DNA of 64,000 nt, from the NCBI GenBank assembly GCA_964035545.1, contig OZ037772.1, positions 3,997,538 to 4,061,537 of the forward strand, given 5' to 3'. Within the stretch, counting starts at the first letter, position 1. Every line of letters starts with the position of its first letter. This document shows positions 6,601 to 30,291 of the stretch, one piece after another. The position numbers were made by a program, and so were the translations under genes. The notes beneath the pieces were generated by a model. The model was not told the origin of the DNA. It searched no databases and worked only from the letters and a program-made list of their open reading frames with translations. This DNA comes from Bugula neritina (taxonomy: Eukaryota; Animalia; Bryozoa).

Positions 6601-6670
6601 GTAGCACCGAATCGTAATTTAGTTGTTGGGGTGAGCATCCGGTGCTGACACTGCCCCAGCGCCGTTTCCC
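3608..6670 (-). CDS. pol: Pol (PR-RT-RNase H-IN), probably expressed by -1 frameshift from gag
   Basis: ALVDSGC (protease); LDLRKAYLQ and YIDD (RT); CDASS...AELEA...KTDS...ADALTR (RNase H); HHCC and D,D,E motifs (integrase). Domain order is Gypsy-type. Confidence 0.92.
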   Translation of the reverse strand, partial: GKRRWGSVSTGCSPQQLNYDSVLPLITLNVNSVGIKALVDSGCEQSVVLERFCTQIGVAPCGPERRILMLNGQITKCRGEAQLAVQVRNRRLSVKCLIAPMLVGGCSLILGMDAISKLGGVTITRNKQVMFPAVEPTTEVGKVSAVSVGVGVDRFDKTLTSDSKGELFVSDIDFNAKFDGKKWTVRWKWENGEPILQNQCGQYAVKDKFKQSYHEQIQQWINDGWLQLYDNKLHGTVTGIVPLMAAAQPNKPTQVRPVMDYSRELNKYIYSKPSGDTAICQDKLRKWRLLDDNASLLDLRKAYLQLHVDSDLQKFQAVRYEGKIYVMTRLGFGLNVAPKIMSKVLSTVLAQDDTIRKGTDSYIDDIIVDETVVSVEVVRNHLLKFGLVTKEPEKLSNARVLGLRVREGWRGGMSCYSWQRDGELPSLESNSNISKRELFSVCGKLTGHFPVAGWLRVACSFMKRLTQSDMWDSAVSDHVQKMLLETLDRVAKSDPVKGKWHVANTDAGTVWCDASSLAIGVSVQIDGQIVEDASWMRKPDDCTHINVAELEAVVKGLNLALKWNLCNIVVKTDSMSVFRWVTSVINDSVRPKVNGMNEMIVKRRLGVIAELIEEYKLSLKIHLVKSAENWADALTRVSSAWLSKRITCASAGVTTPDVADLKDEIAKLHGMHHLGIERTFYLAKCKFGGGIDKELVERVVKECAVCRSIDPSPVQWERGVLEVNENWYRLAMDVSHYNRVPYLTIIDCGPSRFAVWIKLQNETADSVVNQLLKVFQQRGPPTELLSDNGPCFRSDRLEQLLRQWDVQHIFSCAYRASGNGVIERNHRTIKRMAARTRSSIENMVFWYNNTPNSNNVVPSQSLYSYDVKLPKVSPSAIGKPTDITKNPYNVGDKVYVKPVNSKCTTAWPQGMITRVVSNTAVMVDGMTRHISDVRLANAGNRESGDVSSSTKQQSQVHGDIEINLSPDNADEDADANRVVDGENVEEGENVEEGESVDEVIDRPVRDRRPPRWLADFYVDD

Positions 6671-7386
6671 TGTGGGCAATTCCTACTAATATGCCCCCAA
6701 GCCTGACAATTATAGCACTGAATGCTCCATCTTCTGTATTGTTGATGATTATTGGCATTCCGATTAGCATTCATGTTCCCATTTTGACTTTTTCCCGTGT
6801 TACAGCTCCAAGCTGAATGGTGTGGTGAAAAACATTTAAAACACTTTCTAGTAACATTCCTACCAGCAGCACAGGGTGTCAAAGTGTCTACAGTTGCTGT
6901 TGATAACATTATCCTAGCTCTACCAACTAACTCTTCTAAGCTCAACTTTTCAACAGCAGCGACAGATTTTATTTGTGTAGCAACATCCACTGGCAAACCA
7001 GCAATAAATGCACATTTCAGTAAAGGCTCAGGAGTTTTCTGACCTATCAGTGTTACTAGCCTTCTCAAGTCAGCTACATAGACATCTACAGCCTCACCTT
7101 CTTTTAGACTTCTTGATCTAAGTTGATCGTAAGCACTGTAACTGCTCTCACAGAATGACGTCATCAGTTCAGCCTTTAACTTCGGAAAGTCTGATTTAAC
7201 ATCCTCTGAAAACTGCTTATACACAGCAAACGCTGGACCTGCCAAGAATAATGGCAGAAACGATGCAAGATCTTCTACTTTCTGTAACTTTGCTACTAGC
7301 TCCAGCTTCTCACACCACTCAGTAAAGTCTCCACTAACCAAACTGTCCTCATAATTTTTCACTAGATCCGACACCCTGACTGCCAT
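6619..7386 (-). CDS. gag: Gag with two CCHC zinc knuckles
   Basis: 255-aa ORF containing CFKCFSPHHSAWSC and CYNCQAWGHISRNC. Confidence 0.9.
   Translation of the reverse strand: MAVRVSDLVKNYEDSLVSGDFTEWCEKLELVAKLQKVEDLASFLPLFLAGPAFAVYKQFSEDVKSDFPKLKAELMTSFCESSYSAYDQLRSRSLKEGEAVDVYVADLRRLVTLIGQKTPEPLLKCAFIAGLPVDVATQIKSVAAVEKLSLEELVGRARIMLSTATVDTLTPCAAGRNVTRKCFKCFSPHHSAWSCNTGKSQNGNMNANRNANNHQQYRRWSIQCYNCQAWGHISRNCPQGNGAGAVSAPDAHPNN
6627..6670 (-). promoter_or_regulatory. Putative -1 ribosomal frameshift signal G_GGA_AAC with downstream stem/pseudoknot
   Basis: Heptamer at 6670-6664 sits in the gag frame (CAG GGA AAC) and its -1 frame is pol. It is followed by GCGCTG-GGG-CAGTGT and a distal CCCCA able to pair with TGGGG. 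Confidence 0.75.
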
Positions 7387-7813
7387 ATTTCTACCACTGA
7401 TAAATGCCGAAATAGCTTGTAATAGTATTATACTTGAAGTTCACTGAAATATCTTTATTTTGAAAGCACAACTAATCACTACGAACACATTTCTAAGACA
7501 GACAACATATATTATATAAACCACAAAGATGAAGGAATTTAGGACATAAAGGAAAACCACACAACAGCTATAATAATATTTACAAAACGGTTACACAACT
7601 GCATGATGCAATGTCATGCACATTACACTATAAAGTTTAAGCTTCGCTGTGATTACAATGTGAATATGAATTGAATAATGCTTGCAATAACCATTTTACA
7701 CAAAATACGTTACAGTTGCTATAAATGTAAGACTAGTAAATTGGATGCAAATAGGCACGGTAATACTATTTAACTTATGCTATTTTTGAAATTTGTAGTA
7801 AATATTCGGCATG

Positions 7814-9143: not shown

Positions 9144-11257
9144 GCCAAATATTTACTACAAAATTCAAAAATAGCATAAATTAAGTAGTATTACCGTGCC
9201 TATTTGCATCCAATCAACTAGTCTTACATTTATAGCAACTGTAACGTATTTTGTGTATAATGGTTATTGCAAGCATTATTCAATTCATATTCACATTAAA
9301 ATCACAGCGAAGCTTTAACTTTATAGCTTTGTATTTATGTGCATGATTGAGTTTTAATTTTTCTTTTAATTTTATGTGCATTAAAAATGTGTTTAAAAAC
9401 TTTACCAATAAAAAAAATTAAAAAAAATGTACACATAAAATAGAAAAAAAAATAAAATAACAAAAGTGGCAAAATTTTTCCTTTATAACTTATATAAACT
9501 CGCGGTACCAATCTCGGCATAATGGCGCCCATATGATTCCGTAAGATTTGCTAATGGCAACACTCTTAAATATACCACACTGAGCAAGGCTAGATAAAAG
9601 TTAATGATCGATATTGACTCGCTAAGAGTTTTCATGTAAACCCGCAAACTACAACTTTTAACTTGACCGCAAAGCTGGAAGTACGATAAGCGTCGCCGTA
9701 TTGATTTCAGGCGAATTTTAGTTGATTTCTTTCAAACTGCTGAGAAGTAATATTTGCTTCCATTTTATGTCTGTATCAGCCATCAGGGCTATCGCGATAC
9801 AATTTGTAATGTTACGAAATAGGATGTTTACAGATATTATAACTTGTAGTACAATCACACACAATCACAATGTCATTAACCTCAAATTAGCCTAACCACT
9901 AGCTGCTAGTAGTCTACCTAATGCTTCTTTAATCACTACCCCAAAACAGTAGCTACGCATGTAGAATGATTCATAGTCAGCAGCTATGCTTGCATCAGCT
10001 GTGATGTCACACGATGCTTGTTTACTTCAGCCCACTTCTTGAAACAGTAAGATCCTACCCCAAAATAGTAAATTGTAAAATCATACCTCTTACAACACAA
10101 TAATGTTTATCAAATGGATTAGTATATAAGACAAAACCATTTTTATTAGTTGCAATATTGTTAGAGTCATGCTGTCAGTTTGGACAGCATCAAATTTATG
10201 TAAGACTACTAAAGAGTAGCATTATTTGAAAGACTGTGCAAAGCCACAGCATTAACATAACAGTAGACTAGGAGAGAGAGAAAAGAGGTAATGAACATCT
10301 ATTTACAATTATATATCGTTATTACATTTTTATGTTATAAAGTTTTTAATAATATGGGCTGTAGTTGCATGTTATGTTGAATCATTATTTCATGCTGCTA
10401 TCTACGATTTATAATATACATTGCTAGTGCTTTTACATACATACTTATTATATTACGTACATTTTGTTTGCCTTATGCCTTATGTTGTATCATTATTATT
10501 TTAGTTTTTACGGTCAGTGTTTGGTCAGTGTTTGGTCAGTATTTGGTGACTCAAATAAACTCTGATCACGTCCAAAACCCTCCCTATTCCTAGTCAGGCT
10601 GTATAAGCTAGAGTGTCACTCTAAAGCAAGAGTCATAGCAAAGAGTGTCATTCTATAGTAAAAACTCTTTCTCAAAGTTCGGGAGTAAAAACTCTTTCTC
10701 AAAGTCCGGGAGAAAAAGCTCCATCTCAAGTCCAACAAAAGAAGTCGACAAACATAAGAAGACCATAAGGAGAACCTCACTTCTACCCACCTCAACTATA
10801 TAAACATTATTACCATTTATCAGGATTATTCTCAACTCCTCTCAACTACACACAAAGGTGACCTGGAATCAGCAGATTGGTGAGAGATTACCATATAACC
10901 CTCACCTTCACATATAAGTGACATAATTATAAAGAAAATAGTTGAATTGAAAGTTATTAGAACAGTTAGGCTTGCATGCAGTTTTATTTTTTGAAGTATT
11001 GTAATTATAGAAACTCCATTTGATAGACATTGTGTCAAAGCCCCATAAAATCAATTAGGATCTCCCTGTTTCTGATTGGGCAGTTGGGTACAATCCCTGT
11101 GCTGGCATCAGCTGTTTGTTTGCATTAGCTGTTGGCTAGTGATAATTCTTGACAAACTAGTTCAAACTAGTTTTCCTACTGAATTTAGGTTATAAAATAG
11201 CTGTAGTAAGTAAATGCATGCTTTTCACTAACTGTCTCTATTACTAACACAGCAACA

Positions 11258-13999
11258 ATGAATGATGACACATCCACATGTAGTAATAGCATTAGGATTA
11301 GCAGCCGAGTCAAAACCCTATCTACAAAGGGAAAACAATTAGAGGTAGAAAAAAGGTTTAAATCTGTCACAAGTGCAATTAAAAGGTTTAGAAGTAGGCA
11401 TGCAGCAACAGACAATCATGATAATGAATTTTGGGATGACATACAACGAATTATGTTAGATGCAGATGCTGACTTAGCAATTCTAAAGTCATTAGCTCCA
11501 AGTCATCCTCACCTTGAGGACTTAACACAGCAAATTAACAGTATACATGAACAATGTAAGGGCGAAAGCCATTCAGTACATGCTAGCAGTAAACACACAT
11601 CAAAAGCAAGCTCATTCATCTCAGCCAAGACAAAATTGCAAGTTGCACAATTAGAAATTGAAATGGAAGCCATGCAAAGACAGGCTGAGCTAGAAAGGCA
11701 GTTAGCCAATGTCCAGTTGGAATTAAGTAAAAGTAAGCTGTTAGAAAAACAGAAACAACTGAGAATAAGGCAGGAAATAATAGAGGAACATGATGTAGAT
11801 GTTAGAGATGAGCTAGCAGAGTATTTAGATAATTGCCAACCAATAGTGAATCAGGAAAGCAATAGTGAAGTTATTTTTAGTAGGCCAGTAGAAGTTTTGC
11901 AAAGCAACCAACCACAGCAAATAGGCAGCATGCAAAACAATGAATCACAGCATTCTACATGCAGTAATGAATACCTGGCCACATGCTTAACAAAAGCAAT
12001 ACAAGCCAACAATGTGCCGAAGCCACCAATATTTAGGGGAAATCCCTTAGACTTTATAGATTGGGAATATGCCATAGAGAGTTACATCAAGGATAAAATG
12101 ATAGGTGATGATGGTAAAATGTATGTCTTGAAACAGCATGTTGATGGACCTGCTAGAGAAGCAATTAGTGGCCTATGCAGTTTACATACACTAGCAGCAT
12201 ACCAAAAGGCCAGAATAATTTTGAAAGAAAGATTTGGGTCAGAATTCACAGTTGCTAATGAATTTCGAAAGAAAATTAATGCTTGGCCCAAAATGAAACC
12301 ACATGAACATAAGCAGATACAATCATTTTCTGACTTCCTCACACATTGTGAAATAGCAGCAAAAGATATTAAAGAGTTGGAAATTTTAAATGATTGCGAA
12401 AAGAATCTTGAGCTCATGTCCAAGCTGCCAGATAACATGATAAATAGATGGAAGCGTGAGGTAACCACGCATAGGAAAAATCACAGGAGTTACCCCAGTT
12501 TTAGTCAGTTTGTAAAGTTTGTACAAACAGAAGCAGAAATCCTAAATGATCCAATCACTTCATCTTTGCTAGGTTCAAGGGTCATAGACTCAAATAAGCC
12601 TCAAAAGCACAACAATAAGGGCATTAGCTTTGCTACTAGCATAGAAAAGCATTCTCCTGATGTTGAAAGTACAGAAAACCACAAAGCTAAACTATGCCTC
12701 TACTGCATAAGTAATCATAGCACACATGAGTGTAGAAAACTGGCTAGCATACCAGTTGATCAAAAACAAAAGTTCATTACTGGTAAAAGATTATGCTTTG
12801 GTTGCTTGAGAATAGGTCACATGACAAAAGAATGCAGAAATAGAGCTACTTGTAAAATATGCCAAAAAAGGCATCCTACTGTAACACATAGAAGCAATCA
12901 GCCAGCTACACAAGCTAACAACAGCAATACCAAAGTAGAAACAGTGCAGGTAAATGGAGTAGCAAGTAGCAACAACCCAGAGCAAGTAACAGCTAACAGC
13001 AACAATACAGTGACTAAAACAAATGGCTTGTGCTCAATGGTTGTGCCTATATACCTAGCAACTGTAGATAACCCTAATGAGGAAGTGCTAACTTATGCAC
13101 TTTTAGATAGCATGTCAGATACCACATTTGTAACCAACCGAGTTGTTAGTAAGCTACAAACAGCTACAAGCAAACCAGTTTCTCTTAAACTAACAACAAT
13201 GACAGCTGACAACTTGGAAATGAAGTGTAAGGTGTACAATAACTTGACCATTAGAGGACTGAACATGCATGAGCAGATACAAGTAGGAAAGACTTACAGT
13301 AGGGACAGCATTCCAATTAACAAGCAGCACATACCCACACCAGAAATTGCCACTAGATGGCCACACCTTAAATGCATTGCAGGTGAAATACCACAAGGTT
13401 TAGATATAGAGATAGGAATGCTTATAGGGTATGACAACTCCAGAGCTTTAGTGCCACTTGAAACTAGAATAGGCCCTGCAATCAAGGATCCCTTTGCTCT
13501 GAGAACACCTCTAGGATGGTGTATTGTAGGCAATAGTGGTAAGCATGAAACAAACTCATTTCCCACATGCAATAGGGCTATGGCTCATGAGCAGAATTTG
13601 AGTTCAGATATCTTGAATGTCCTACAGCAAGATTATACTGACACAAAGTACATTGGTACTCATAAAATGTCACAGGAAGATGCCAAGTTTTTAGATAACA
13701 TGCGCAACAATATTAAACAAAGAGAAGACAATTATTACAGCATGCCACTGCCGTTTAAAAATGCTAAGCCACAATTACCAGACAATAGACAATTAGCTGT
13801 GCACAGACTTGATACCCTCAAAACTAAAATGCCTAAAGACCAGAAATATGGAACAGATTACGTGGCATTCATGACAGACATAACAAACAATGGCGATGCA
13901 GAATTGGTACCTACAACTTGTGAGGCAAGCAACCATCAGTGGTACATTCCCCACTTTGGCGTGTATCACCCCAAAAAGAAAAAGATTAGTAAAGCATAA
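11258..13999 (+). CDS. BEL/Pao Gag-protease-partial RT polyprotein, truncated by internal deletion
   Basis: DUF1759-like FRGNPLDFIDW region; triple zinc knuckles (CLYCISNH..C, CFGCLRIGH..C, CKICQKRH..H); protease YALLDSMS; ends at WYIPHFGVYHPKK, the start of BEL RT. Confidence 0.9.
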   Translation: MNDDTSTCSNSIRISSRVKTLSTKGKQLEVEKRFKSVTSAIKRFRSRHAATDNHDNEFWDDIQRIMLDADADLAILKSLAPSHPHLEDLTQQINSIHEQCKGESHSVHASSKHTSKASSFISAKTKLQVAQLEIEMEAMQRQAELERQLANVQLELSKSKLLEKQKQLRIRQEIIEEHDVDVRDELAEYLDNCQPIVNQESNSEVIFSRPVEVLQSNQPQQIGSMQNNESQHSTCSNEYLATCLTKAIQANNVPKPPIFRGNPLDFIDWEYAIESYIKDKMIGDDGKMYVLKQHVDGPAREAISGLCSLHTLAAYQKARIILKERFGSEFTVANEFRKKINAWPKMKPHEHKQIQSFSDFLTHCEIAAKDIKELEILNDCEKNLELMSKLPDNMINRWKREVTTHRKNHRSYPSFSQFVKFVQTEAEILNDPITSSLLGSRVIDSNKPQKHNNKGISFATSIEKHSPDVESTENHKAKLCLYCISNHSTHECRKLASIPVDQKQKFITGKRLCFGCLRIGHMTKECRNRATCKICQKRHPTVTHRSNQPATQANNSNTKVETVQVNGVASSNNPEQVTANSNNTVTKTNGLCSMVVPIYLATVDNPNEEVLTYALLDSMSDTTFVTNRVVSKLQTATSKPVSLKLTTMTADNLEMKCKVYNNLTIRGLNMHEQIQVGKTYSRDSIPINKQHIPTPEIATRWPHLKCIAGEIPQGLDIEIGMLIGYDNSRALVPLETRIGPAIKDPFALRTPLGWCIVGNSGKHETNSFPTCNRAMAHEQNLSSDILNVLQQDYTDTKYIGTHKMSQEDAKFLDNMRNNIKQREDNYYSMPLPFKNAKPQLPDNRQLAVHRLDTLKTKMPKDQKYGTDYVAFMTDITNNGDAELVPTTCEASNHQWYIPHFGVYHPKKKKISKA

Positions 14000-14279
14000 A
14001 GGTAGCATAACTCCCAGACTCACAATTATTGACTTGACAGATGCTAAACATCTTATAATGCAGTGGGTACAAAAAGAGTCATTTTTAGATGAATATTACA
14101 GGCTAAGTAAAGACAATTGTGTAAGCAAAGATAGAAACACATAAAACTGAGATGACTTAATTCGTAAGGTAAAAGTACAACTAGCAACTACAGAGTTGAA
14201 CAGTAAAGATGTGAGACTAGCTCCACCCACATACTTAGATAGGCCTATCCACAAATTAATTTACCTATTTACCCCATAA
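13985..14279 (+). pseudogene. Residual BEL pol fragments flanking two deletions
   Basis: LTIIDLTDAKHLIMQWVQKESF (post-RNase H linker), then DDLIRKVKVQLA...YLDRPIHKLIYL (BEL integrase C-terminus). RT core, RNase H and integrase core are absent. Confidence 0.75.
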
Positions 14280-15159
14280 CCTTTGCATGCATACCTATAT
14301 TAGTATTTTAGCTTAGTATTTTAAATGCATAATAATATAATTGTTAATTCCCTCTAAGTGAATAGAGAGAAATTAAAGGGGGGAGTGTAATGTTACGAAA
14401 TAGGATGTTTACAGATATTATAACTTGTAGTACAATCACACACAATCACAATGTCATTAACCTCAAATTAGCCTAACCACTAGCTGCTAGTAGTCTACCT
14501 AATGCTTCTTTAATCACTACCCCAAAACAGTAGCTACGCATGTAGAATGATTCATAGTCAGCAGCTATGCTTGCATCAGCTGTGATGTCACACGATGCTT
14601 GTTTACTTCAGCCCACTTCTTGAAACAGTAAGATCCTACCCCAAAATAGTAAATTGTAAAATCATACCTCTTACAACACAATAATGTTTATCAAATGGAT
14701 TAGTATATAAGACAAAACCATTTTTATTAGTTGCAATATTGTTAGAGTCATGCTGTCAGTTTGGACAGCATCAAATTTATGTAAGACTACTAAAGAGTAG
14801 CATTATTTGAAAGACTGTGCAAAGCCACAGCATTAACATAACAGTAGACTAGGAGAGAGAGAAAAGAGGTAATGAACATCTATTTACAATTATATATCGT
14901 TATTACATTTTTATGTTATAAAGTTTTTAATAATATGGGCTGTAGTTGCATGTTATTGTGATAGTTTTGTGGATTGTGAATGAAACTAGTGCTGTTACAT
15001 GCTTGTATGAGAAACAAGGCGAGAAATAAGGTAGAATGTAGATAATCTTTATTGTAGTATAGTCCGAGTGAATCAATGGTCTTTATCCAGCGAGCTCCAG
15101 TAGTAGACTGAACTATACTGGAACTCGCTGGCTTTTATATACATGCAGGACAAAGACAT

Positions 15160-15320
15160 TCCTTTGTTTGCCGAGATCGGAGACCCGAAATACCGAATAT
15201 CGGCATTTCGGGGATCCGAAATGCCGAATCCGGCATTTCGGTACTTCGGTATTCCGATATGCCGAGAATCGGCATATCGGTGTTTCGGAGGACCGAAGTA
15301 CCGATCTCGGCAACAAAGGA
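15160..15320. repeat. Palindromic CCGA/TCGG array in U3 of the 3' LTR (longer version)
   Basis: About 18 CCGA/TCGG cores in 160 bp, many spaced 8 bp apart. Confidence 0.9.
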
Positions 15321-15653
15321 CACACACACACAACATAAATTTACCACACACACCCCCCATCGGAAAGCATGCTTTCCGATAAAGAGGCGTACACAACACA
15401 AACACACAACAGGGAATGACACGACAATAAAACACACAGTTGAAAGTAACACACGAAAAAAAATATGGTAAACATGCAGTGATAGTAATAATATAATGAT
15501 AACACAAAAAAAACAGGGAAGATTTGTGCACACACAGAAAAAACAGAGCATGAATAGGTACATGCATTACATGAAGAACTTACACACATATAATAAACAA
15601 ACAAAGAATAAGAGTAGAAAAGAAAAGAAGCAAAAAAAACTATACAAATAGTC

Positions 15654-17123
15654 TCAGCGGCGGTCGCCAGATCGACCCCGCTCCAGGCGGCTAACTCGTC
15701 TCCGGAGTTGCCCCAGCTCCTCTTCATATCTGCGGAGCTGCCGGCGTAACTGGTGAACCTCCTCTGCCAACTGAGCTGACGTCTGGTGCCTAGGGCGGTC
15801 GGTAGTACCACGGGCAGGACGTCGCTGGCGGTGCGTCTGCTTCTCGCCCGCCGCCGAGGGTCGGGGGCCCAGGTCCGATGAATCGGCCCTGGCACCTGGT
15901 CCGACCCGTGCCAGCATGACCCGAAGTGGCTGGGTGGCTGCCGGTTGGGGTGTCGCGGCGGGCTCCCCTTCTTCCTCCCGAACAGGCCTACACGCGGGGA
16001 ATCCCAGGGCGAGAGCAGCCCGTTTGTGGGGATCCGCCACGTGTGGCAGCACCAGGTCCCGAAATTCGGGAAAGGAGGCCTGGTCTACAGCAAACGTGTA
16101 GCCCGTGTGGCAGTGAGCTATGCGCTGATGTCTCAACACATAGTCTCTCTGGTAGGAGAACTCCCCACACGGGCAAAACACGTTGATGTAATGCTGAGGG
16201 GCGTGTACGCGCAACCGCCGTGCAGAGGAGAATTTCCTCTTACACTCATGGCAGATGCGGTTGCCCGGCTCACCGCAAGCATCACCAATTTTTAGGTTGG
16301 TGGGTCCAGTCACCCAATACTGGCGGGCGACCAGGGCCCGAGGCAGGGCCAGTATTGGGGAGGCATCTTCTTCTGCTGGCAGGTGGTCGCCGTGTAGGAT
16401 GCCCTGCTCCTCCCCGGCCGTGAGCTGAAGCTCGACCGGTTTGGGGCCAGGGCCAACCATGGCGGAACACACCTCTGTGGAGGAGGTGGCGGCCTGCTGG
16501 CTGGTAGAAGCCGAAGCAAGGCCCGGTGGGGGAGGGGAGTCGGACCGACTGGCCTCCTCAACGTCCATTCGCTCCTCTAGAATAGATAGTAGAGGCTGTG
16601 AGAAGCCGGTCTCACTATCGCCGAAATTCGGCACAGGTGTGAATGGAGATAAGTTAAAAACCGAGGGCCGAGGTGTATCGCAGAAATTGACTGAGCCTAC
16701 ATCGTGATTCAACAATGTATCAATGGCAGAGTCATCTCCGAGATCCATCTCGGCTTCCGGTCCTAAGATATCAGAACCAAGTAAATCTAGTAAAGACCAG
16801 TCTACTGTAGTTTGATTAGACTCCGCAACTGAAGGATCTAATCTAGAAGAAATACCTGATTGTGTATCTGGTAGAGTGATCCCCATAGCCGCTGATAGCG
16901 TACGGAGAATAGTGGTAAAATCAAAATGAGTATTAGAATCAGAATTTAGTTTGAGTTGCAACTGCCGTGCGAGCTGTGTGAAGTCAGAATGAGAAATGGC
17001 CGAACCTCGTGCTTCAGAAGTTTTACCTGCTGAAGCCCGAGTCGCGTGGCTCGTGGGAATTTCCCCCGGATTTCGAGGAGACAACTCGCGTGATCGAGTG
17101 TCTTCCGAAATTCGGTCGGCCAT
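15654..17123 (-). CDS. ORF3 of the Gypsy element: acidic/disordered region, two C2H2-type zinc fingers and a C-terminal coiled coil
   Basis: 489 aa from ATG 17123, frame open further upstream. Fingers CHECKRKFSSARRLRVHAPQH (C-x2-C-x12-H-x3-H) and CPCGEFSYQRDYVLRHQRIAH; heptad stretch LAEEVHQLRRQLRRYEEELGQLRRRVSRLE. No signal peptide or TM segment seen. Confidence 0.8.
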   Translation of the reverse strand: MADRISEDTRSRELSPRNPGEIPTSHATRASAGKTSEARGSAISHSDFTQLARQLQLKLNSDSNTHFDFTTILRTLSAAMGITLPDTQSGISSRLDPSVAESNQTTVDWSLLDLLGSDILGPEAEMDLGDDSAIDTLLNHDVGSVNFCDTPRPSVFNLSPFTPVPNFGDSETGFSQPLLSILEERMDVEEASRSDSPPPPGLASASTSQQAATSSTEVCSAMVGPGPKPVELQLTAGEEQGILHGDHLPAEEDASPILALPRALVARQYWVTGPTNLKIGDACGEPGNRICHECKRKFSSARRLRVHAPQHYINVFCPCGEFSYQRDYVLRHQRIAHCHTGYTFAVDQASFPEFRDLVLPHVADPHKRAALALGFPACRPVREEEGEPAATPQPAATQPLRVMLARVGPGARADSSDLGPRPSAAGEKQTHRQRRPARGTTDRPRHQTSAQLAEEVHQLRRQLRRYEEELGQLRRRVSRLERGRSGDRR

Positions 17124-17187
17124 TTCTTCTTCTTGGTGGAATTCTCCGGGGTGATGGAGGGAATTTCCAACCAAGATGGGGTGGCAG

Positions 17188-19283
17188 TCAGTGTGGGGGG
17201 GGGTCTTCCTCAGGAGGGGGCCCCTCCAGGTGTCCTACAGCATAGTCTGCCAGGTACCTGGGAGGTCTTCTTGGCCGCTGGCTCCTCTCAAGTGGAACAG
17301 ACTCTGGTGGTGTTGGTGGCTCCTGGGCTACCCTGGTAGGGGGGTCCCCGTCTTCACCCCGTACGGGGGTGGGGGTGTCCTCCCCCGGGAAGGGTTGTGA
17401 GCCAAGGGCTTGCTGCTGTTCCTGCTCCCGCTCCGCTCTCTGCTGTCGCTCCAGCTGCTCTATCAGGGCGGCTTGCTCCTGGTCTGCCTCCCTGGGGACC
17501 ATGATCTCCACCTCACGGGGCCGGGTGGCCCGTCCACGACGGTTGGGCTGACGGTGGGGCTCCAAGAGGGGTGGAGCCTGACCCACCGCGTCTGGGCTGG
17601 CATGGTAAGGTTTGAGGCGCTGCTCGCTCTGGACAGAGACCTGTCCAGAGCGCTCCACACGGTATGTGTGGTTGGGCAGCACCTCTACTACGCAGTAGGG
17701 GCCGACGAACTTGGGCTGAAGCTTAGCCGACTGTCCACGCCGCCTACGGTAACTCACCATCCAGACCCAGTCTCCCACTTGGTACAACGGGGGCTCCTCT
17801 GAGTCCTCGGTGCGGGTCTGCCACTGCTGGGTGCGCAGCGCATCATGAGCTTTGCCCATGATGTCCATCAGACCCTCCACATATTCGTGTACCGGTGACT
17901 CGGGGGCAGGAACATGGTACGTCAGGTGTTCCGGGACCCGCGTCTCCCGGCCTAACATCAGGAAGTTTGGGGTCTCCTGCGTGGCGGAGTGTGGTGTGCT
18001 GCGGTAAGCCCGCATGATCTGCGGCAGCACCACGTCCCATTCTTCCTGACCTCGACCAAGCAGCAGGCTCCGGAGCGCGTCACCCAACATCCTGTTGTTC
18101 CGCTCGACGACTCCGTTCCCTTGCGGGTGATATGGGGTGGTCCGACTCTGGTTCACCCCCCATATCCGGCAGAGGTCTCCCATGAGCTGGGACTGGAACT
18201 GGGCACCCTGGTCTGTATGTATCTGCTCGGGCAAACCGAGGTAACAGAATACATGTTGGTCCAGGGTTCGGGCCACCGTGGGGGCAGTGGCGTCTGGAAT
18301 AGCCAGAGCATCTGCCCACCGGGTAAAGTGGTCCGTGAGCACCAGTATCCAGTTGTTTCCTCTGGCGGATAACGGCATAGGCCCGACGAGGTCTACCGCC
18401 ACTACTTGCCACGGTCGACCAGCGTACAGCCGGCGTCGACCAGTGGTTTCCGTGGGGCGGCCATGCTTGCTAGCTTGGCAGACCTCGCATTGCCGTACCC
18501 GCAGTCGTACGTCCCGAGTCATTCCGGGCCAATACCAACGCAGCCGCAGACACCTGATGACCCGACTGACTCCAGCATGAGCCTGCTTATGGGTGTCCCA
18601 GATCAGTTCCCGCCGGAGGGCGCGTGGACAGACGACGCGGTCCCTCTTCTGCTGGCGGTTGTCTGCTGCTAACGTTATCATCAGGAGGCCATCAGGACTG
18701 ACCTTGAGGGCATCCCAGCGACGACAGAGGAGTTGGAACTCAACGTCTCCCTGCCGCTGCTGTTCCTCGCTAGGTCGTCGGCCCTCCTTCTTGGCCCGGA
18801 AGATGTCCGCTACCGCGCCGGGTAGTGTCTCCTGGAGTCGGCACAGCTCCTTGACGTTCTGGTGCAGAGTAGGGTTGGCGTGGAGCGCCTGGACACCGTC
18901 CTGGTGGGTTTCGGTCCGAAGATGGCCGTGCTCCCACCGGTAGGCGGTGCCCTCCACTAGCTCTGTTTCCACGTCAAGGCGAGCGGGTCCCCCGTCCCGC
19001 TGTTCGATGTGCAGGCATTGCTTACAGTCCTCTACCGGCCGGCGGCTCATGCCGTCGGCGTTCCCATGCTTCCGGCCTGCACGGTGCTCTATACGGTAAG
19101 AGAACTCGGCAAGAATCTCTAGCCAACGAGCTACCTGGCTCGAGGGCTCTGCACGTTTACACAGCCATATCAGTGATGCATGGTCTGTTCGCAAGCGGAA
19201 CGATTTCCCATACAGATATGGCCGAAAGTGCTTGACCGCCTTGACTACTGCTAGGAGTTCCTTCCTAGTGGTGCAGTAGTTCT
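17188..19283 (-). CDS. pol: Pol part 3: RNase H C-half and integrase
   Basis: NYCTTRKELLAVV...RTDH...NADGMSR; HHCC (HKQAH...CEVC); VAVDLVGP, HTDQG, GNGVVER; GPY motif; ends after RRPPRYLADY. Confidence 0.92.
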
Positions 19284-21845
19284 CACAGTTGGTTTAAGGT
19301 CATTACTTTCCAGATTCAGGCACTGCTTTATGTTATATATAAACGGTTTCCAGGAGATAGCTCGAACAGTTTTTGTCTCACATTAACAAATTTTACATGA
19401 AAAGATAGCTCTTGCATTCCTCTTTCATATACTTTTTTAATTTTTCAACAAAAAATTTTCTGAGAAAGTTGTTGCATAATAAGTAAAATTTTACACCCTC
19501 CATGTTCCACTGCTGTAGCACAGGGGATTCATTTTATAAAGTCTAAAAGTTAAACTTGACATTCCTTGATATGTTTTCTCTAATATACTTTCTTTGTTTT
19601 TTGAAATTCTGTTTATGCTCTTCACAATTTGGTAAAAACATACACCATTTTGCAAGTTTCACTGCAATTTTCTAAATTCTTCATATGGTGGTTCTAGCTA
19701 CGCTCCTGTGACTAATTATAGCATTCCTTGTACGTTTGCCGCTCTGCGAGCTATCACAATAACATATAGTACCCTCTCGCACAAATTGGCAATCTATTGG
19801 ATTTCTGCCAATATAATGTTCCCTGTTTTACATTAGCACTTAGCTGAATCATCTCACTATGTTACAATAATATATTGAAAATGCCTCAGCACAACATAAT
19901 TCTTTGTTTGTTTGGCAGAGTTAATTTCAGCTAAATCACTTCACTTTGCAGTCTTGTCAGTAAAGGTCTGTCTATAGCACAGCAGGTGTACTTTCAGTTT
20001 CTCTAATTCACATGATTATTTTAAGTACATTGTATTCTATAAGATCAATTTAAGGTTTAGTCCAGTGTTCAGTATCTAATTATTATGCATGTATGTTGTC
20101 TTACTGTTGAACAAAAGTTAAAAAAAACTTTACAATTATAGCCATATTTATTATACATGCGTAGGATTTGCATAAGTTGACAAAAAAAAATGCAACAAAA
20201 CAGGGTTGAACCATGACCAACCAACTCGTCGCTGACGCCACTAACCTCTGGACCACGCAATCATCGTTAATGAGATGCGCACTATATGAGTGACTATCAT
20301 TACATAAATATTTCGCGCGCAAATGGGTTATAATTATTAAGCTGTCAATTCATGTTGATAGCAGTCAACTGTTGCAATAGTCTCGGGTTACTAGCAAAGC
20401 TAATGGTTTTGAACAAATAACCCAAAAGTTTAAAAATAAGTAGCTTGCGTATTACTAGCTACAAAAACAGGTCTGAAATAGACTGGTAAAGCAAGCTCTT
20501 ATTGTAGAGTTTGCAGATGTGCTCTAAAATAAAACTTAAACTGTATGCTATTACATAAGTATTTGTATGCGAGAGATAAATGGACATTACTGAGTTTCTG
20601 GAAAACAACATACTTGAAGTTAACTTTGACAATGGTGTGTTATTTTCATCATAGCTAGCCTATAGCATAAATCTCTAATCATATGAATCTTTATGAAGCC
20701 CACAGCTCATGTAAGGGTGGCAATGTAATTTGAAATGAACAATTATGTTGCTGCATTGTGTCTAAGGTATATTAGAGAGCAGAATTTGGTTTTACTAGCC
20801 TACCCCAACGGCATTCTACAATGCAGCTTATATGCTGGCAGTTGTAATAAGTACTGCCAATAGCAAGGTTACTATCACTGCTAGCTCTGTGCAGTATGTA
20901 ACCTCTTGAATAATTGCGCCAATTTTAAACTCTTGGAAGTTGGCCAAGTTATCATATCGCAGCCAGCCACCGGAGACAAAGCATCAGAGCTATTCATATA
21001 ATATTATACTGATGCACTTGGTAGCAGAGTGGCTAATCTAATATAGTTCATAGTTCAACACCCTTTACTTTGGGAATACAGCCTCTTTTTTTAGGTTTAC
21101 CTTACAAAGCATGAAAATATCTAAACTGACATTCTGATAATTTAGAGGTACATTTTGAAAACTAGGTTAATTGCACTTGTTTGCACAACAACAATAATAA
21201 AATAGATATTATGCAGTATAATAAAAACACACATAATACTATATAATATATTATAATGATAATAATATAATATTATAAGTACCATTACTGCATTTTATAA
21301 ATCACATGGTTGCCAAAAAAATGTATCACAAATTTTGTAATTATACATCAAAAATAGAACTAGCTAGGCAGCAGGTTAGAATAGAGTAAATTTTTAAAAC
21401 ATGAAATCATGATTTGACTATCGTTTTGTTTAGGCCAACCAACCTAGGAATACAAGATTGGGTTTTAGCTGACAGTTTATAGCATTTAGCTTTTGAGCGA
21501 GCAGCACTGGCACTTGTGAAGTATAGGCAAAGTTAGTGAAGCGAGACTAACAAGCACTCAAATACAAGGCATATTGAGACACAATAACAAGTCAGGAGCG
21601 TATAAATTGAAAAGAATGTGGAAGGGGGACTATGTTTTTCAACAAGCTATAACTTAAACATGAATTGGCTTTTGAAAAAAATAAAAAAGTATATTGGAGA
21701 ACATAAGTTTCTTTATCTTTTCATATTTTTTTTGTTCTTGTGACATTCAACCTGTTCGAGCTATCAGTGGAACATTGTTCATATAGAACATAAAGCACCT
21801 GGCAAAGAGCCAGAAAATGAAAAGTATGACCTTAAACCAACTGTG
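19284..21845. mobile_element. Non-autonomous CACTA/EnSpm (CMC)-type DNA transposon
   Basis: TIR CACAGTTGGTTTAAGGTCAT / ATGACCTTAAACCAACTGTG with imperfect extension of ~170 bp; 2-bp TSD CT at 19282-19283 and 21846-21847; removing it restores AAAEKNYCTT in RNase H. Confidence 0.88.
20200..20262 (-). other. tRNA-like/SINE-head Pol III promoter remnant
   Basis: A-box-like TGGTCCAGAGG (20255-20245) and B-box-like GGTTCAACCC (20212-20203) at tRNA-like spacing. Confidence 0.35.
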
Positions 21846-23228
21846 CTTCTCGGCGGCCGCGAGAGTCTTGCTATAGTAAGCCACGACCACCTCACTTCCA
21901 CCCTGGACTTGAGACAGGACGGCTCCCACGCTGTGGTCGCTGGCGTCGGTGTCCAGGATGTACTCCTTGGCTGGATCAGGATACGCCAGGATTGGCGCTT
22001 CCATTAGCCGTTGCTTGAGGTGGTCGAATGCCTGCTGCTCCTCCTGTGTCCACTGCCACCGGACTCCCTTGGCGGTCAGCCGATTTAACGGCTGAGCCAC
22101 TCCTGCGAAACCAGGTATGTACTGCCGGTAGTACCCTACGAGGCCCAGGAATGCACGCAACTCAGGGAGGTCGCGGGGAACAGTCCACTCCTTCACAGCT
22201 TGTACCTTCTCTGGATCGGTAGCGACCCCATCACGGCCAACCACATGGCCCAGGTATGTTACTTCTGGCTGCAGGAGTGCGCACTTGGAGGGCTTCAGCT
22301 TCAGTCCGGCTGCCCGGAGACGGTCAAAGACCTCCCGCAGACGACTGACATGAGTCGAGAAGTCTGGGGAGATGACAATGACATCGTCCAGATAGATGAG
22401 GAGGGTCTTCCAGTGTAACCCACTGAGGACTTGCTCCATGAGCCGTTGGAATGTTGCCGGAGCGGACGTTAGTCCGAATGGCAGTACTTTCCACTTCCAG
22501 AGCCCGTCGCGAGTAATGAATGCTGCTTTGTCCTGGGCATCAGGACTGAGGGGCACTTGCCAGTACCCGCTAAGCAGATCCAAAGTACTGAAGTACTTGC
22601 TACCCGCGAGGGCATCTAGAGACTCATCTATCCGTGGGAGAGGGTAGGCGTCCTGGATGGTGGCGTTGTTGAGTCTGCGGTAGTCTACGCAGAATCTCCA
22701 GCTACCATCCTTCTTCTTGACCAGGACCACTGGGGAGCTCCACGCACCGTGGGCAGGCTCAATCAGATCCCGGTCCAGAAGATCCTGTACCTGTCGGCTC
22801 ACATCCTTCTCCTTCTCCGGGCCCAGACGTCGGGTAGGCTGCCTGATGGGAGTGGTGTCGGCTGCCAGGGGTATCTCGTGAGAGATAACCTTAGTCAGCC
22901 CCATGTCTCTATCGCCACGACTAAAGACATCACTGTACTCCGCGAGTAGTTGAGCCAGTACTTGGCGTTCAGTACTACTCGTACAGTTTCCGCGTGCTCC
23001 GCCATACAGGTCAGCCAGATGCTCCGGGACTGCTTCTCGTCTGGTGTGAGGGGGGTTTCCCTGGTTGTCGGCCACTGTCTCCAGTGCCGGACCCACATCC
23101 GCTTCCTGGATGGAGTGGTACTTCCCCACCAGCGCTCCAGCCGATAGTTGGACAGGTTCCGTGAAGGGGTTGGTGCACTGCACGAGGAGCTCTTGCCGAC
23201 AATCTAGCCGATTCAGGCTGTTTGCTAG
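21846..23228 (-). CDS. pol: Pol part 2: reverse transcriptase and RNase H N-half
   Basis: WRFCVDYRRLN, LDLLSGYWQ, PFGL, YLDD, DTDAS; cut after KTLAAAEK by the DNA transposon. Confidence 0.92.
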
Positions 23229-24110
23229 TCAGATGGCTCCGTGCGTTCCTTCAACCATCCCCAGGCCGGCGATCCCCTTGCAGTTGACTCTACATCGGAG
23301 AGTCGCCTGGGACCTCCCCGGAACTGTGCAGTCCCGTACTACCTGGACTCCGCCCACCAAGGGCCTGCCAAACTTGTCAACACAGACAAGTTCCTTCCCA
23401 GCCATCACCACCACTGACTTCTGGAAATCCATGTGGCACTGGTGTTTCTCCAGGAAGGGCATTCCCAAGATGGCGTCCTCCTTCAGCTGGCTGACGATAA
23501 ACGTCTCGTGAACTGCTTGATCACGGACGCGTCCAGGTAGTGAAATGACGCCGTAGAAAGGAATGCATGATCCGTCCGCCAACGTACCATGCGCACCTTC
23601 ATACGGCTCGAGGCTCGCCCGCTCTCGTGCACCAAGGGTGTCAAAGAGACGCCTACTCAGCAGGTTGGTAGTGCACCCAGTATCCAGTAGGAATGTGGCA
23701 GCTTTACCCGAAATCTTTCCGGGCAGGAAGTAGCTGCTTCCATACGGCTGGGTGCTCCTGGAGCGGTCAGTCTCTGGGGGAGACACGACTTGGGTCCGCA
23801 CAGCGGGCCTCCTCTTCGTCTTAGAGACAACGAGGGTTTTCTGAGGTCGGGAGGGTAGCTTGGGATACTCTTGCGAGTAAGCTGAATCCTCCTCCACAAC
23901 CTCCTCGGGCAACCCCGCGAACCGGTTACGGAGTGGCCAGGCTGGAGGATCGGGTAGGCCTTTCGGTCTCTGAGATCTCCGGTTTGCGTGCCACTCGATA
24001 TAGGTCGACTCTGGAGAGGTCTCTTCTACTGTCTTCCGAGTCCTATCCCGGACCGGATTGGCATGGGGCCCACGGGTGGCGGAATTCACCGTGAGCCTCG
24101 GGTGTTTAAA
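23229..24110 (-). CDS. pol: Pol part 1: aspartic protease, ending at an in-frame TGA
   Basis: FLLDTGC...DAILGMPFL; TGA at 23231-23229 is in frame with the RT that follows. Confidence 0.85.
   Translation of the reverse strand, partial: FKHPRLTVNSATRGPHANPVRDRTRKTVEETSPESTYIEWHANRRSQRPKGLPDPPAWPLRNRFAGLPEEVVEEDSAYSQEYPKLPSRPQKTLVVSKTKRRPAVRTQVVSPPETDRSRSTQPYGSSYFLPGKISGKAATFLLDTGCTTNLLSRRLFDTLGARERASLEPYEGAHGTLADGSCIPFYGVISLPGRVRDQAVHETFIVSQLKEDAILGMPFLEKHQCHMDFQKSVVVMAGKELVCVDKFGRPLVGGVQVVRDCTVPGRSQATLRCRVNCKGIAGLGMVEGTHGAI
24067..24110 (-). promoter_or_regulatory. Putative -1 frameshift signal T_TTA_AAC with stem-loop
   Basis: Heptamer 24110-24104 in the gag frame (CCT TTA AAC); the -1 frame is the protease ORF; downstream GGCTCACGG...CCGTGGGCC stem. 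Confidence 0.8.
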
Positions 24111-24985
24111 GGCTTCTGTTCCTTAGGGCAGTGCCTTCTCACATGTCCTGGCATCCCGCACTCCCAGCAAGTGGGCATAGGGGGGCGGACAGGGTCGTCC
24201 CGCGAGCGGGGAGCCCGCCTGTCCGTCTGGTTGCGCTGCAACTCCGTCACTGTAGCCTGCAGGCCTTTCATCATGCTCATCAGCATGTTGAGCTGCGTCT
24301 GCTCAGGTGACGGGGTAGCTGCTGCTGCCACTTGTGGGGTTGGGGGTATCTCTTCTGCATCTCCGGCCACCTGGCGAGCTGCGTAGTTCGCCCTCCGTGG
24401 CTCTTCCACCTGGAAGTAGGCCTTCCCCATCTCTAGTGCTTCGTCCAGGCTCTTGACTTTTGCGGCTAGCCAGTACCGCTGGAGGTCCGGGTGGTTCACA
24501 CTCCGGAAGAACGCGTTAAAAACGAGGCGCTTCCGATCGTCGCCAGTGGCGTGACCGAAAGCAGCCTGAGCCAGGCGCTCTACCTCGTTAGCGTGATCTT
24601 CCAGAGATGTCCGTCGGTCTCTCCTCATCACTTGTAGCTGGTCTGACGCCTCTTCCGTGGTCAACCCGAACCGGGCCCTAAGAGCCCGCAGGATGTGGGC
24701 TTCGTCGGGTCCCAGTGCGAAGTTCCTGGCCCGGCCTGTCAGACAGGCCCGGAGTTGGAGGACGCGCACCCGTACTGGCCATTCAGCGGTGGCGGCCACG
24801 TCCTCGAACTCCTTGATGAACTGTTCCACGTCTCCATCTCCTCCGAAAGTCGGGGGCTGGAGGCGATACCTGTCACCAGGTGCTGCCTGTCCTTGCCCCC
24901 GCAATCCCTGGAGGGCTGTGACCAGCGCCTCAATAGTGAGGGCTGGTGGTGCTGCCGCCTCAGGGGCTGGGTCCCCTGGGGCCAT
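24086..24985 (-). CDS. gag: Gypsy Gag with one CCHC knuckle
   Basis: PPTFGGDGDVEQFIKEFEDVA...LRACLTGRA...CWECGMPGHVRRHC; first ATG at 24985. Confidence 0.9.
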   Translation of the reverse strand: MAPGDPAPEAAAPPALTIEALVTALQGLRGQGQAAPGDRYRLQPPTFGGDGDVEQFIKEFEDVAATAEWPVRVRVLQLRACLTGRARNFALGPDEAHILRALRARFGLTTEEASDQLQVMRRDRRTSLEDHANEVERLAQAAFGHATGDDRKRLVFNAFFRSVNHPDLQRYWLAAKVKSLDEALEMGKAYFQVEEPRRANYAARQVAGDAEEIPPTPQVAAAATPSPEQTQLNMLMSMMKGLQATVTELQRNQTDRRAPRSRDDPVRPPMPTCWECGMPGHVRRHCPKEQKPLNTRGSR

Positions 24986-25018
24986 CCTATTTCTCTTTAG
25001 CAACTAGCTATTCGTAGA

Positions 25019-25036
25019 ATCCCACTGCTGCCACCA
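25019..25036 (-). promoter_or_regulatory. Primer-binding site, tRNA-Leu
   Basis: TGGTGGCAGCAGTGGGAT, 1 nt from the 5' LTR, complementary to a tRNA-Leu-type 3' end (ATCCCACYGCTGCCACCA). Confidence 0.8.
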
Positions 25037-25186
25037 ATGTGATAGTTTTGTGGATTGTGAATGAAACTAGTGCTGTTACATGCTTGTATGAGAAACAAGG
25101 CGAGAAATAAGGTAGAATGTAGATAATCTTTATTGTAGTATAGTCCGAGTGAATCAATGGTCTTTATCCAGCGAGCTCCAGTAGTA

Positions 25187-25220
25187 GACTGAACTATACT
25201 GGAACTCGCTGGCTTTTATA
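25187..25220 (-). promoter_or_regulatory. LTR core promoter (TATA plus Inr)
   Basis: TATAAAAG at 25220-25213; TCAGTC Inr with its A at 25190, 30 nt downstream; AATAAA further downstream in R. Confidence 0.7.
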
Positions 25221-25240
25221 TACATGCAGGACAAAGACAT

Positions 25241-25370
25241 TCCTTTGTTTGCCGAGATCGGATCCCCGAAATGCCGAATCCGGCATTTCGGTACTTCGGT
25301 ATTCCGATATGCCGAGAATCGGCATATCGGTGTTTCGGAGGACCGAAGTACCGATCTCGGCAACAAAGGA
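25241..25370. repeat. Palindromic CCGA/TCGG array in U3 of the 5' LTR
   Basis: Units such as CCGAAATGCCGA, CCGATATGCCGA, CCGAAGTACCGA and their reverse complements, enclosed by TCCTTTGTTTGCCGAGATCGG...CCGATCTCGGCAACAAAGGA. Confidence 0.9.
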
Positions 25371-26151
25371 CACACACACACAACATAAATTTACCACATT
25401 ATGTTGAATCATTATTTCATGCTGCTATCTACGATTTATAATATACATTGCTAGTGCTTTTACATACATACTTATTATATTACGTACATTTTGTTTGCCT
25501 TATGCCTTATGTTGTATCATTATTATTTTAGTTTTTACGGTCAGTGTTTGGTCAGTGTTTGGTCAGTATTTGGTGACTCAAATAAACTCTGATCACGTCC
25601 AAAACCCTCCCTATTCCTAGTCAGGCTGTATAAGCTAGAGTGTCACTCTAAAGCAAGAGTCATAGCAAAGAGTGTCATTCTATACAATTATAAATGTTCT
25701 TAATTCAATCAATATTATGAAATAATTAATGTAGGAAAATCAATTTTGACTATATAGAATAATCTCAATCTGAATAAGTATTATTTAGTTATTGTAACAC
25801 TTGCACATCGTCTTACTCTTACTCTTAGTCAGATAACATAGTACATACAGTAATACTAATAGTAATACTACCACTAGTAGTAGCAGTAGTGGTAGTAGTA
25901 GTAGGCTACATGATGATGATCATTATGATTATGATTATGATTATGAAGATGGTTATTACTATAACTATTACGGTATGAGTATAACTATAACTGTATTAGT
26001 ATTTGGTTTTATTTTGCATTGCTAATTGAAGACCATGCGTTAAAATTAACTGTTTCTCTCTTTTCTAAATTACATTTCAAGTTGCACACTAATAGACATA
26101 TATGCTTTCAATTTTTTGGTCTATCTTCAAGTTGTGAAACTTGACCAGTAT

Positions 26152-28813: not shown

Positions 28814-30291
28814 GTATGACTACGACTAACTGTAACTAGAATAAAATATTGAATAATAGAGAAGTTCCATACTGTTACACCTCCTTTGACTTGTGCTACC
28901 GTCGGTAGTGCTAAAAGAGTGGAGCCAAAGAAAAGCATCATCACAGAATTCACAGCCTGCTGGTTTGAGATTTTTGTGGTCTAGAGATTGTACTGGGTTA
29001 CAGAGATCTTTTTCCGTCTGTGAATTTTTGATCCCTGCGGTTGTTTCTGGCTGTGGGTAGTTGGAGGTGTTGAGAGAGTGGGCTCACTGGGTAGGCTATA
29101 TTATTGTAATCATATTAACCAACTTGACAGTTTACTAATTCATTGTCTAAATCTTGTCTGCCTTTGTCTAGTAGCACTATTTATTTATTTATTTACTTAT
29201 TAATTTAATTAAATTACTAGTTTATATTACCAAGTTATATTACTAGTTTATACTGCTAGTATTCAACAACTATTCTCCATCACATCTCAACTCTGACGCA
29301 ACTACACTGACTAAACATTGGTATAGTTTATAGTTTATGTTGAACTCTTCAGACCCTGAGATATGTGCGTGTGGCTTCACCTGCGAGTGTGGTGCCTGTG
29401 TTGGGGTATGTGACCTTGACAGAGACTGTGGGAAGCTGCAGATCTGTTTGGAGAAAAGATGTTATCAGCAGGCCTCACCAGATGACAGAACAGTTGTCTG
29501 GGATCTTTATCACTCAGAACTAGTAGAATGTTCTTCAGGTTTGAATGCGAAATCTTTGTTCTAAACTCTATTGGAGTTTAAAAGTGTTGCTTTCTGTTGT
29601 ACTTATATCTGTGCTGGCCAGGATTTTTGAATGATTTTTGTTATGTATTTACGTAACAGAGTGTAACCTTAAAGCTGAATTTGCTTTATTTTCCACATAT
29701 TTTGGTTTGCGATTTTTCAGTAGAAACGAGGCATCACACTTGGTGTGATTATCAGCATTTTTTGCAGGTGCTTCTATCCGTGTACTGACAACACAGCCTG
29801 TCCTAGTGATGGACAAATCTGTCACCATGGTGTCTGTAAAGAGGGCTGTCAGGTGAGTAGTCGCTATGACCTACACTGCGAGTTATTGATGACTTTCATA
29901 CTATGAGTTGTGACTGCCTACTATAATTTATACTGCGAGTTCAAATAGCTGCTGTAACTTATGCTGTGAGTCATGACTAACTGAAATCACTTATACTGTG
30001 AGTCATAACTAACTGATATCACTTATACTGTGAGTCAATTATCAAAAATAGCAAAGAAGTAGAGATATGTTGTGTATGTGAGATATGTGAGGTTATTTAG
30101 TGACTAGTTCGCTATTTATAGAGTTTTGTTTCTATTAATAGACTGTACTGAAAATGAACAATGTGGATCTGAGTTTACTGAATGCATATCCAACATATGC
30201 TATCAGCTTTATCCTCTCAACAATCCAGATCTTTCTGATGCTGAGCAGGACAGACTCTTTGATGATCGGCTGGATCTACAGAATGATGGTA

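Follow-up and report, generated by a model that had tools for sequence, protein, structure and literature searches.

The host element and its 3' cassette

The window (the whole 64,000-nucleotide stretch of Bugula neritina DNA analysed here) contains a 10.4-kb Ty3/Gypsy LTR retrotransposon, flanked by a 4-bp target site duplication (TTAT) and inserted into the right-hand LTR of a BEL/Pao element (Table 1). TG...CA LTRs, a target site duplication and a primer binding site (presumably of the tRNA-Leu type) are all present, and gag is followed by PR-RT-RH-IN in that order with a GPY/F module, as is characteristic of Ty3/Gypsy. The two LTRs show 2 mismatches over 361 aligned bases, in addition to 31 gap columns. 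The gag and pol frames overlap at a slippery-type heptamer, TTTAAAC, at which we infer -1 frameshifting. The copy is young yet damaged, its pol being broken twice, by an in-frame stop and by a 2.56-kb insertion that is absent from the sister contigs. This insertion, which in our view resembles a non-autonomous CMC/EnSpm-type DNA transposon, has inverted repeats beginning CACAGTTGG and a very high summed contig depth. The surrounding BEL/Pao element (window positions about 9805-25684) has near-identical LTRs, has most of its pol deleted and carries a gag-protease frame of 929 aa with DUF1759 (11210-13999); together with the Gypsy element it forms a nest of young insertions. Two more LTR-type elements lie at 3340-7627 and 26152-28813 (repeat pairs D11 and D15), with long minus-strand ORFs at 3611-7440 and 26989-28422, and tandem arrays with units of 17, 26 and 30 bp occupy positions 30122-33471.

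Table 1. Features of the Gypsy element and its cassette, in window coordinates.
Feature	Position	Strand	Basis or remark
Whole Ty3/Gypsy LTR retrotransposon	14957..25398	-	LTR pair, domain matches, contig joint across whole element
5' LTR, 361 bp, TG...CA	25038..25398	-	alignment to 3' LTR
Primer binding site	25020..25037	-	sequence
gag frame with CCHC knuckle	24086..25003	-	open frame, domain match
pol, PR-RT-RH part	21848..24122	-	frame broken by in-frame stop 23229-23231
Non-coding insertion in RNase H, with terminal inverted repeats and flanked by a 2-bp TSD	19284..21845	.	joint 19281-21846 in sister contigs
pol, RH end, integrase, GPF/SH3 module and RRPPxYLADY tail motif	17188..19281	-	stop 17188-17190
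Homopolymer run of 9 bases in pol/cassette frame overlap, frameshift site versus relatives	17195..17203	-	run-length variant
Zinc-finger cassette frame (ORF3 of the first-pass annotation)	15654..17234	-	in relatives an in-frame C-terminal extension of Pol
Possible internal start at conserved Met80 (MGITLP)	16884..16886	-	relatives' alignment
Probable intron with GT-AG ends, in frame (279 nt or 93 codons, GC 0.44)	16577..16855	-	deletion in relatives
Acidic-hydrophobic patch, residues 108-138, activation-domain-like	16710..16802	-	sequence; inside probable intron
Near-invariant Met186, candidate start of short spliced form	16566..16568	-	8 nt after acceptor
Compact double zinc-finger domain, residues 256-385	15969..16358	-	conserved; C291-C294-H307-H311, then C317-C319-H332-C338
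C-terminal heptad coiled coil, L452-L480, preceded by Arg-rich stretch	15684..15770	-	heptad/coil scoring
CCGAAATTCGG palindrome, copy 1 of 3	16059..16069	.	window motif count
CCGAAATTCGG palindrome, copy 2 of 3	16621..16631	.	window motif count
CCGAAATTCGG palindrome, copy 3 of 3	17105..17115	.	window motif count
U3 nested palindromic array of CCGA(A) half-sites, candidate response element	15160..15320	-	just upstream of TATA box
3' LTR, 392 bp	14957..15348	-	alignment to 5' LTR

Between integrase and the 3' LTR, in sense orientation to pol, lies the open frame here called the cassette, with 526 codons from stop to stop and 489 aa from the ATG at 17123. The first-pass annotation had described it as an uninterrupted ORF of about 490 aa, and both the open frame and the features listed for it (acidic-hydrophobic patch, canonical C2H2 finger, CxC finger, Arg-rich stretch and heptad coil) are indeed present. 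It had also reported that signal peptide, furin site and TM helix are missing, which holds for the signal peptide and the TM helix (the best 19-residue Kyte-Doolittle mean of the window protein is 0.94) but not for the furin site, as there is one R-x-R-R at residue 432; this motif is irrelevant because signal peptide and TM helix are absent. With no signal peptide, TM anchor or fusion protein domain, the product is not an Env protein.

The notion of a discrete third ORF is not borne out in that form: members of the window family normally read from Pol into this region without a change of frame, and in the present copy a frameshift separates the two. Taking the RRPPxYLADY tail motif as reference point, the integrase tail is in frame with the cassette in all five junction-spanning relatives among 159 proteins (P0007, P0009, P0057, P0097 and P0130, the last being decayed further upstream of the junction). 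A Met matching the ATG at 17123 is found in one of the four relatives aligning there, the sister contigs also vary in this codon, and this ATG is probably no true start. By comparison with the spanning relatives, the separate ORF of the window copy is the product of a frameshift at the homopolymer run in the frame overlap. One sister contig of run X1 has another length of this run, with a depth of 883 of 3226, contig depth not being readable as copy number; the run length found in the window may reflect polymorphism, descent within a shared sub-lineage or an error of assembly. The internal starts of the cassette are likely M80 and M186. A regular-expression search of the window gave no TATA box and no strong polypyrimidine acceptor between the integrase tail and M80. 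Two GGGAATTTCC sites, which we take to be NF-kB-like, lie in the integrase-cassette linker (17055-17064 and 17159-17168) and nowhere else in the window, and around the same linker (17122-17178) the summed depth was very high in run X3.

The double zinc-finger domain and the clade that carries it

A first homology search returned 11 relatives of the cassette protein. At E<=0.001 it is matched by 167 representatives (150 of them listed), with no named protein among the entries for which names are given. In 72 aligned sequences C291, C294, H307, H311, C317, C319, G320 and H332 are kept at 92-100%, the finger ligands being near-invariant down to about 20% identity. Finger 1 fits the canonical C-x2-C-x12-H-x3-H pattern, in agreement with the C2H2 type first given for both fingers. 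For finger 2 this type has to be revised: position 338 is Cys in 58 of 64 aligned rows, with His in other clade members, and in the window subgroup the fourth ligand is, to judge from the alignment, most likely C338 and not H337, which makes the finger C2HC. A 5-residue inter-finger linker and a CxC second finger are found family-wide, the 7-residue TGEKP-type linker being absent.

Residues 252-385 are predicted as one compact domain (pLDDT 93.8, pTM 0.86) in which the two fingers pack together. The full-length protein is predicted with a mean pLDDT of 49, and its fold matches nothing in the PDB. For the finger core, Foldseek gave no match at E<=0.001 in PDB or BFVD, the best structural match covering the finger pair only (5vmu_A, VIA Z 3.6, rmsd 2.7 A, 57 residues). 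The best PDB sequence matches of the domain profile are DNA-binding C2H2 transcription factors; every Pfam C2H2 score of the window protein is below the curated cut-off, and the ESM Atlas matches are unnamed clusters or generic C2H2 only. A homodimer prediction for residues 256-489 scored 0.12 and gave no usable answer. Considering that there is one globular two-finger domain with a 5-residue linker and structure matches of at most Z 3.6, the ligand could be protein or RNA. Whichever functional reading is adopted, the module represents a zinc-finger domain family that has no name and that no Pfam model matches above its cut-off. In P0021 and P0044 the whole finger module is present in two tandem copies followed by the terminal coil.

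A DNA pattern for the finger pair identified 70 loci, of which 20 were kept (profile E<=1.6e-10), 8 weak ones were set aside and 42 were dropped as unrelated. Pol lies upstream on the contig in 9 of the 20. Many kept loci come from one related assembly series and belong to about five families, and they are therefore not 20 independent cases. The pattern had 0 matches in viral contigs, and protein-based locus searches gave no confirmed relative in metagenome or viral contigs. L027 and L040, which belong to one family, have a single unbroken PR-RT-RH-IN-finger-coil ORF (1744 and 1760 aa) terminating just before the polypurine tract. At L047 and L012, intact pol stops after the tail motif; beyond an AT-rich gap of 300 nt, the cassette forms a separate ORF of 225 aa that has an ATG of its own. 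About 200 codons are read past the tail motif at L036/L014 before the frame changes, and in the L036/L014/L063 family this change lies near an A-rich run before the fingers. An acceptor-like AG immediately precedes the cassette ATG at L036, L030 and L054, the last of which is decayed. Across the clade the cassette keeps its position between integrase and the 3' LTR, either as a fused Pol tail or as a separate ORF, depending on the family. Four loci of one family (L004, L030, L035 and L067) share a 400-aa ORF that contains this finger module and ends in the coil, but pol is not matched upstream of it, nor does a polypurine tract follow; it is possibly a domesticated or non-autonomous form.

The cassette module ends 19 of 64 clade Pols and 0 of 56 others among the 120 long Pols retrieved with L027, a query which itself contained the module and so favoured fused matches, while many clade members end at contig edges. 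An earlier result, the absence of fused homologues (0 of 690 longer candidates with a finger-region query), is overturned by these 19 Pols and by L027/L040. The 64 clade Pols have about 50-80% integrase identity to the window, and none has an NCBI or UniRef name. The fused ones extend about 340-1030 residues beyond the integrase core, with linkers of 90-600 residues. An integrase tree (FastTree, 115 rows, 9 short ones dropped) supports the clade at 1.0 and groups the window with P0170, P0162, P0161 and L027 at 0.95; with IQ-TREE (69 rows) the support is 99.9 for the clade and 91.6 for the window plus the fused elements. P0170, the closest relative, continues for about 200 codons beyond the tail motif, in a frame without a finger. 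On these trees Pol fusion is common around the position of the window. The architecture of patch, double finger, basic stretch and coil recurs across the clade, and the ORF with the transcription-factor-like layout noticed in the window is element-borne and conserved.

P0157 and its cluster-mate P0313, whose tail is the same, are single ORFs of 1145-1208 aa; in P0157 the protease is joined directly to the finger cassette, and no RT or integrase match was found. They are possibly a non-autonomous derivative retaining the cassette. In the P0167 Pol the tail motif leads almost directly into a terminal coil similar to the one in P0164/P0165, and the fingers are missing. Precomputed domain matches include PF00692 (presumably dUTPase) in the clade Pols P0202 and P0216, PF00628 (which we take to be PHD) in several out-of-clade Pols, and PF01885 (source name RNA 2'-phosphotransferase) in P0248.

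The finger-domain dN/dS of L027 is 0.04, 0.15 and 0.06 against L040, L068 and L010, respectively, with dS saturated in the last pair; it is 0.04, 0.27 and 0.05 for L030 against three copies, 0.43 and 0.16 for L008 against two, and 0.45, 0.30 and 0.75 for L047 against three (0.75 for L047/L017). It is thus 0.04-0.45 in 10 of 11 informative pairs, with small substitution counts. For the separate ORF of L047/L012 the values are 0.28 and 0.21. The fingers of the L045 family have 3-5 nonsynonymous differences and no synonymous ones, and in the window family 40 of 345 variant sites gave 6 synonymous and 7 nonsynonymous changes in the fingers (11 and 16 elsewhere), which are too few and too biased for dN/dS. 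The cassette is under purifying selection, and ratios well below 1 in most pairs speak against neutral decay.

Probable intron, acidic patch and palindromes

Residues 90-183 are precisely missing in P0006, P0057 and P0097, that is, in 3 of 16 relatives spanning the patch. Mapped onto the window DNA, this deletion is bounded by CAG|GTATTT and by a CTAG rich in pyrimidines. The intervening 279 nt keep the phase and have a GC content of 0.44, against 0.62-0.64 in integrase and the downstream exon. The precise loss of a 279-nt GT-AG stretch points to splicing and the stretch is a probable intron, although the three proteins may form one subfamily and hence represent one deletion event. With approximate splice-site matrices, the acceptor came out on top of 97 AG sites, and did so before attention had been drawn to the deletion. 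The donor was no better than joint third among 36 candidates, and the 5' region of the window element contained no strong upstream donor (best score 3.0). L027 has no good acceptor near its acidic patch, and there was no intron-matching joint among the 15 contig joints listed of 31. A 12-kb contig recorded for one of the three patch-deleted proteins suggests that spliced RNA had been copied back into the genome. Since the long form conserves the patch at the protein level, we infer two isoforms. Compared with shuffled linkers, the patch scores higher in 14 of 23 proteins. A (V/I/A)(P/A/S)(Y/H)K motif is found in 9 of 23 linkers against 0.4 expected; this PYK motif, like the palindrome described below, was picked post hoc after inspection. 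In 15 of 19 fused Pols the terminal coil outscores every one of 20 shuffles.

The U3 palindrome is about 160 nt long, with a DNA fold z of -15 and most of the length of the array upstream of the TATA box. The density of CCGAA is 60 per kb in U3, compared with gag and pol densities of 1-3 per kb. The whole window has three copies of the 11-mer CCGAAATTCGG, all of them inside the cassette, a count reached in 0 of 2000 synonymous resamplings. Repeated U3 motifs are present at 3 of 9 loci, with sequences differing from those of the window in L040 and L036, and absent from six further loci. The internal echo of the palindrome was found in the window only, and generalising it to the loci of other families failed.

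Possible functions and comparison with known systems

The cassette is the conserved 3' module of a Gypsy clade, and we tentatively favour the reading that its product is the element's own DNA-binding transcription regulator. This reading accounts most simply for the activation-like patch, the finger pair, the coil, the palindromic half-sites in the element's promoter and the candidate routes to expression independent of integrase. There would be two sources of the protein: the Gag-Pol tail, which would be packaged and possibly freed by the element's protease, and a spliced subgenomic RNA translated from an internal Met. The protein would dimerise via its coiled coil and bind inverted CCGAA half-sites both in U3 and within the cassette, with its acidic patch activating the LTR and, more speculatively, removal of the 279-nt intron giving a patch-less form that damps the activation loop. 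Simple LTR retrotransposons are thought to depend on host transcription factors, self-encoded DNA-binding transactivators being a mark of complex retroviruses. A broader and less probable proposal is that of an envelope-less Gypsy clade with self-regulation in the style of complex retroviruses, whose own zinc-finger transactivator, supplied as Pol tail or from spliced RNA, would recognise family-specific U3 palindromes and be toggled by splicing between activating and activation-less forms. Observations against a regulator include the packing of the two fingers into one globular domain, unlike canonical DNA-reading arrays, the limitation of repeated U3 motifs to 3 of 9 loci and of the internal echo to the window, and the long linkers kept open to integrase in 19 Pols, which tethering explains at least equally well.

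Such tethering would make the cassette an integrase targeting module, linking the integration complex to particular DNA or chromatin by staying on integrase or, when made separately, by binding it via the coil. We consider this rather unlikely. It agrees with the in-frame fusion to integrase in 19 of 64 clade Pols over linkers of 90-600 residues and with a position that is that of the chromodomain, C-terminal to the GPY/F module (PMC5006619, PMC2774666); captured readers are likewise described as steering insertion in other LTR elements (PMC6673714). However, a tether needs neither a conserved acidic-hydrophobic patch nor an internal intron, the separate ORFs of L047/L012 are under selection, and in P0157 and P0313 the module belongs to a protease-containing ORF with no integrase match.

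An RNA-binding accessory factor for export or packaging of the unspliced genome, like CERV or Rev/Rec, is less probable still. The RNA of the element appears to be spliced, which would create a need to export the unspliced form, the Arg-rich stretch and the palindromes, which fold strongly, could both act at the RNA level, and CERV is described as a Gypsy protein whose mRNA is spliced and which may have a leucine zipper and a Cys finger (PMC10309623). The layout of the cassette is nevertheless unlike that described for CERV, which has a G-protein-like domain and exons shared with gag. In addition, the finger profile is closer to DNA-binding C2H2 proteins, and the U3 array lies mostly upstream of the TATA box.

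It is similarly improbable that the split seen in the window is a functional state of its family, either a true ORF3 or a programmed shift at the homopolymer run, amplified among young copies, in which case the first-pass architecture would be right for this lineage. The length variant accounts for only 883 of 3226 depth units, so that the window form is maybe common, but contig depth does not translate into copy number. A second family (L036/L014/L063) also shifts frame near an A-rich run, and the cassette of the window is intact though pol is broken twice; on the other hand, all five spanning relatives are continuous, the ATG lacks conservation, the rest of the copy has decayed, and homopolymer runs are prone to slippage and long-read assembly error. 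A one-off host gene capture or decaying passenger without function is very improbable and in the main already ruled out, even though most database relatives are fragments and the L004/L030/L035/L067 family has no nearby pol or polypurine tract, given the near-invariant ligands in 72 sequences to about 20% identity, the confinement of the module to one Gypsy clade (19/64 versus 0/56 Pols) and a dN/dS well below 1 in most pairs.

If the cassette is a regulator, its switching between Pol fusion and separate ORF and its alternatively spliced patch would permit a direct test of a Gypsy feedback loop; if it is an integrase tether, it would be a new sequence-reading targeting module. A word of caution for annotation is that an apparent ORF3 in a single decayed copy can be a detached Pol tail.

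No description of the cassette was found in the literature searches, whose scope excluded Repbase, GyDB and paper supplements; the main texts of mollusc and annelid surveys (PMC6238403, PMC8556966) contain neither 'ORF' nor 'zinc'. The env ORF3 of errantiviruses has the same position between integrase and the 3' LTR and possibly the same expression from spliced RNA, but it encodes a signal peptide, a TM helix and a fusion-protein domain, all of which the cassette lacks. Krueppel-type C2H2 factors (Kaiso/ZBTB33, SALL4, HIC2) share the canonical finger 1, and the two-finger core superposes on them weakly (Z 3.6); the cassette differs in its 5-residue linker, CxC finger 2, flanking helices and compact 130-residue domain.

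The closest functional analogue of the proposed regulator is Tas of foamy virus. Like HTLV Tax/HBZ, it is a regulator encoded beside the 3' LTR, the position that the cassette also takes, and the intron-less cassette relatives are paralleled by the delta-Tas provirus, which arises when spliced RNA is copied into the genome. We know of no Pol fusion of Tas or Tax/HBZ. These systems belong to enveloped retroviruses, unlike the window Gypsy, and the comparison is one of position and proposed function. For foamy virus, both Tas-mediated transcription regulation and an internal promoter are described (PMC7828637).

Within Gypsy, the report on Cer1 of C. elegans (Ty3/Gypsy) describes CERV as a non-Env accessory nuclear protein made from a spliced mRNA, and the cassette resembles it as a Gypsy accessory protein with a possible zipper and Cys finger (PMC10309623). 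By that description, and not by sequence, CERV is built of H/M/G domains and has some exons in common with gag, whereas the cassette follows integrase and has a C2H2 plus CxC pair. No chromodomain was detected in the window frames or in the precomputed domains of the 120 Pols, which sets the element apart from chromoviruses, and the window frames gave no PHD finger match. LTR elements with captured C-terminal modules are nonetheless on record, with the chromodomain, the PHD finger and the MBD of CopiaMBD as examples (PMC5006619, PMC2774666, PMC6673714). Chromoviruses and the other captured-module elements, as outlined there, likewise carry an extra folded domain in the Pol ORF, that of the window lying downstream of GPY/F; the cassette differs from them in combining a double zinc finger with an acidic patch and coil, in occurring also as a separate ORF and in its probable intron. 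Both captured C-terminal modules and a non-Env accessory protein thus have precedent in LTR elements.
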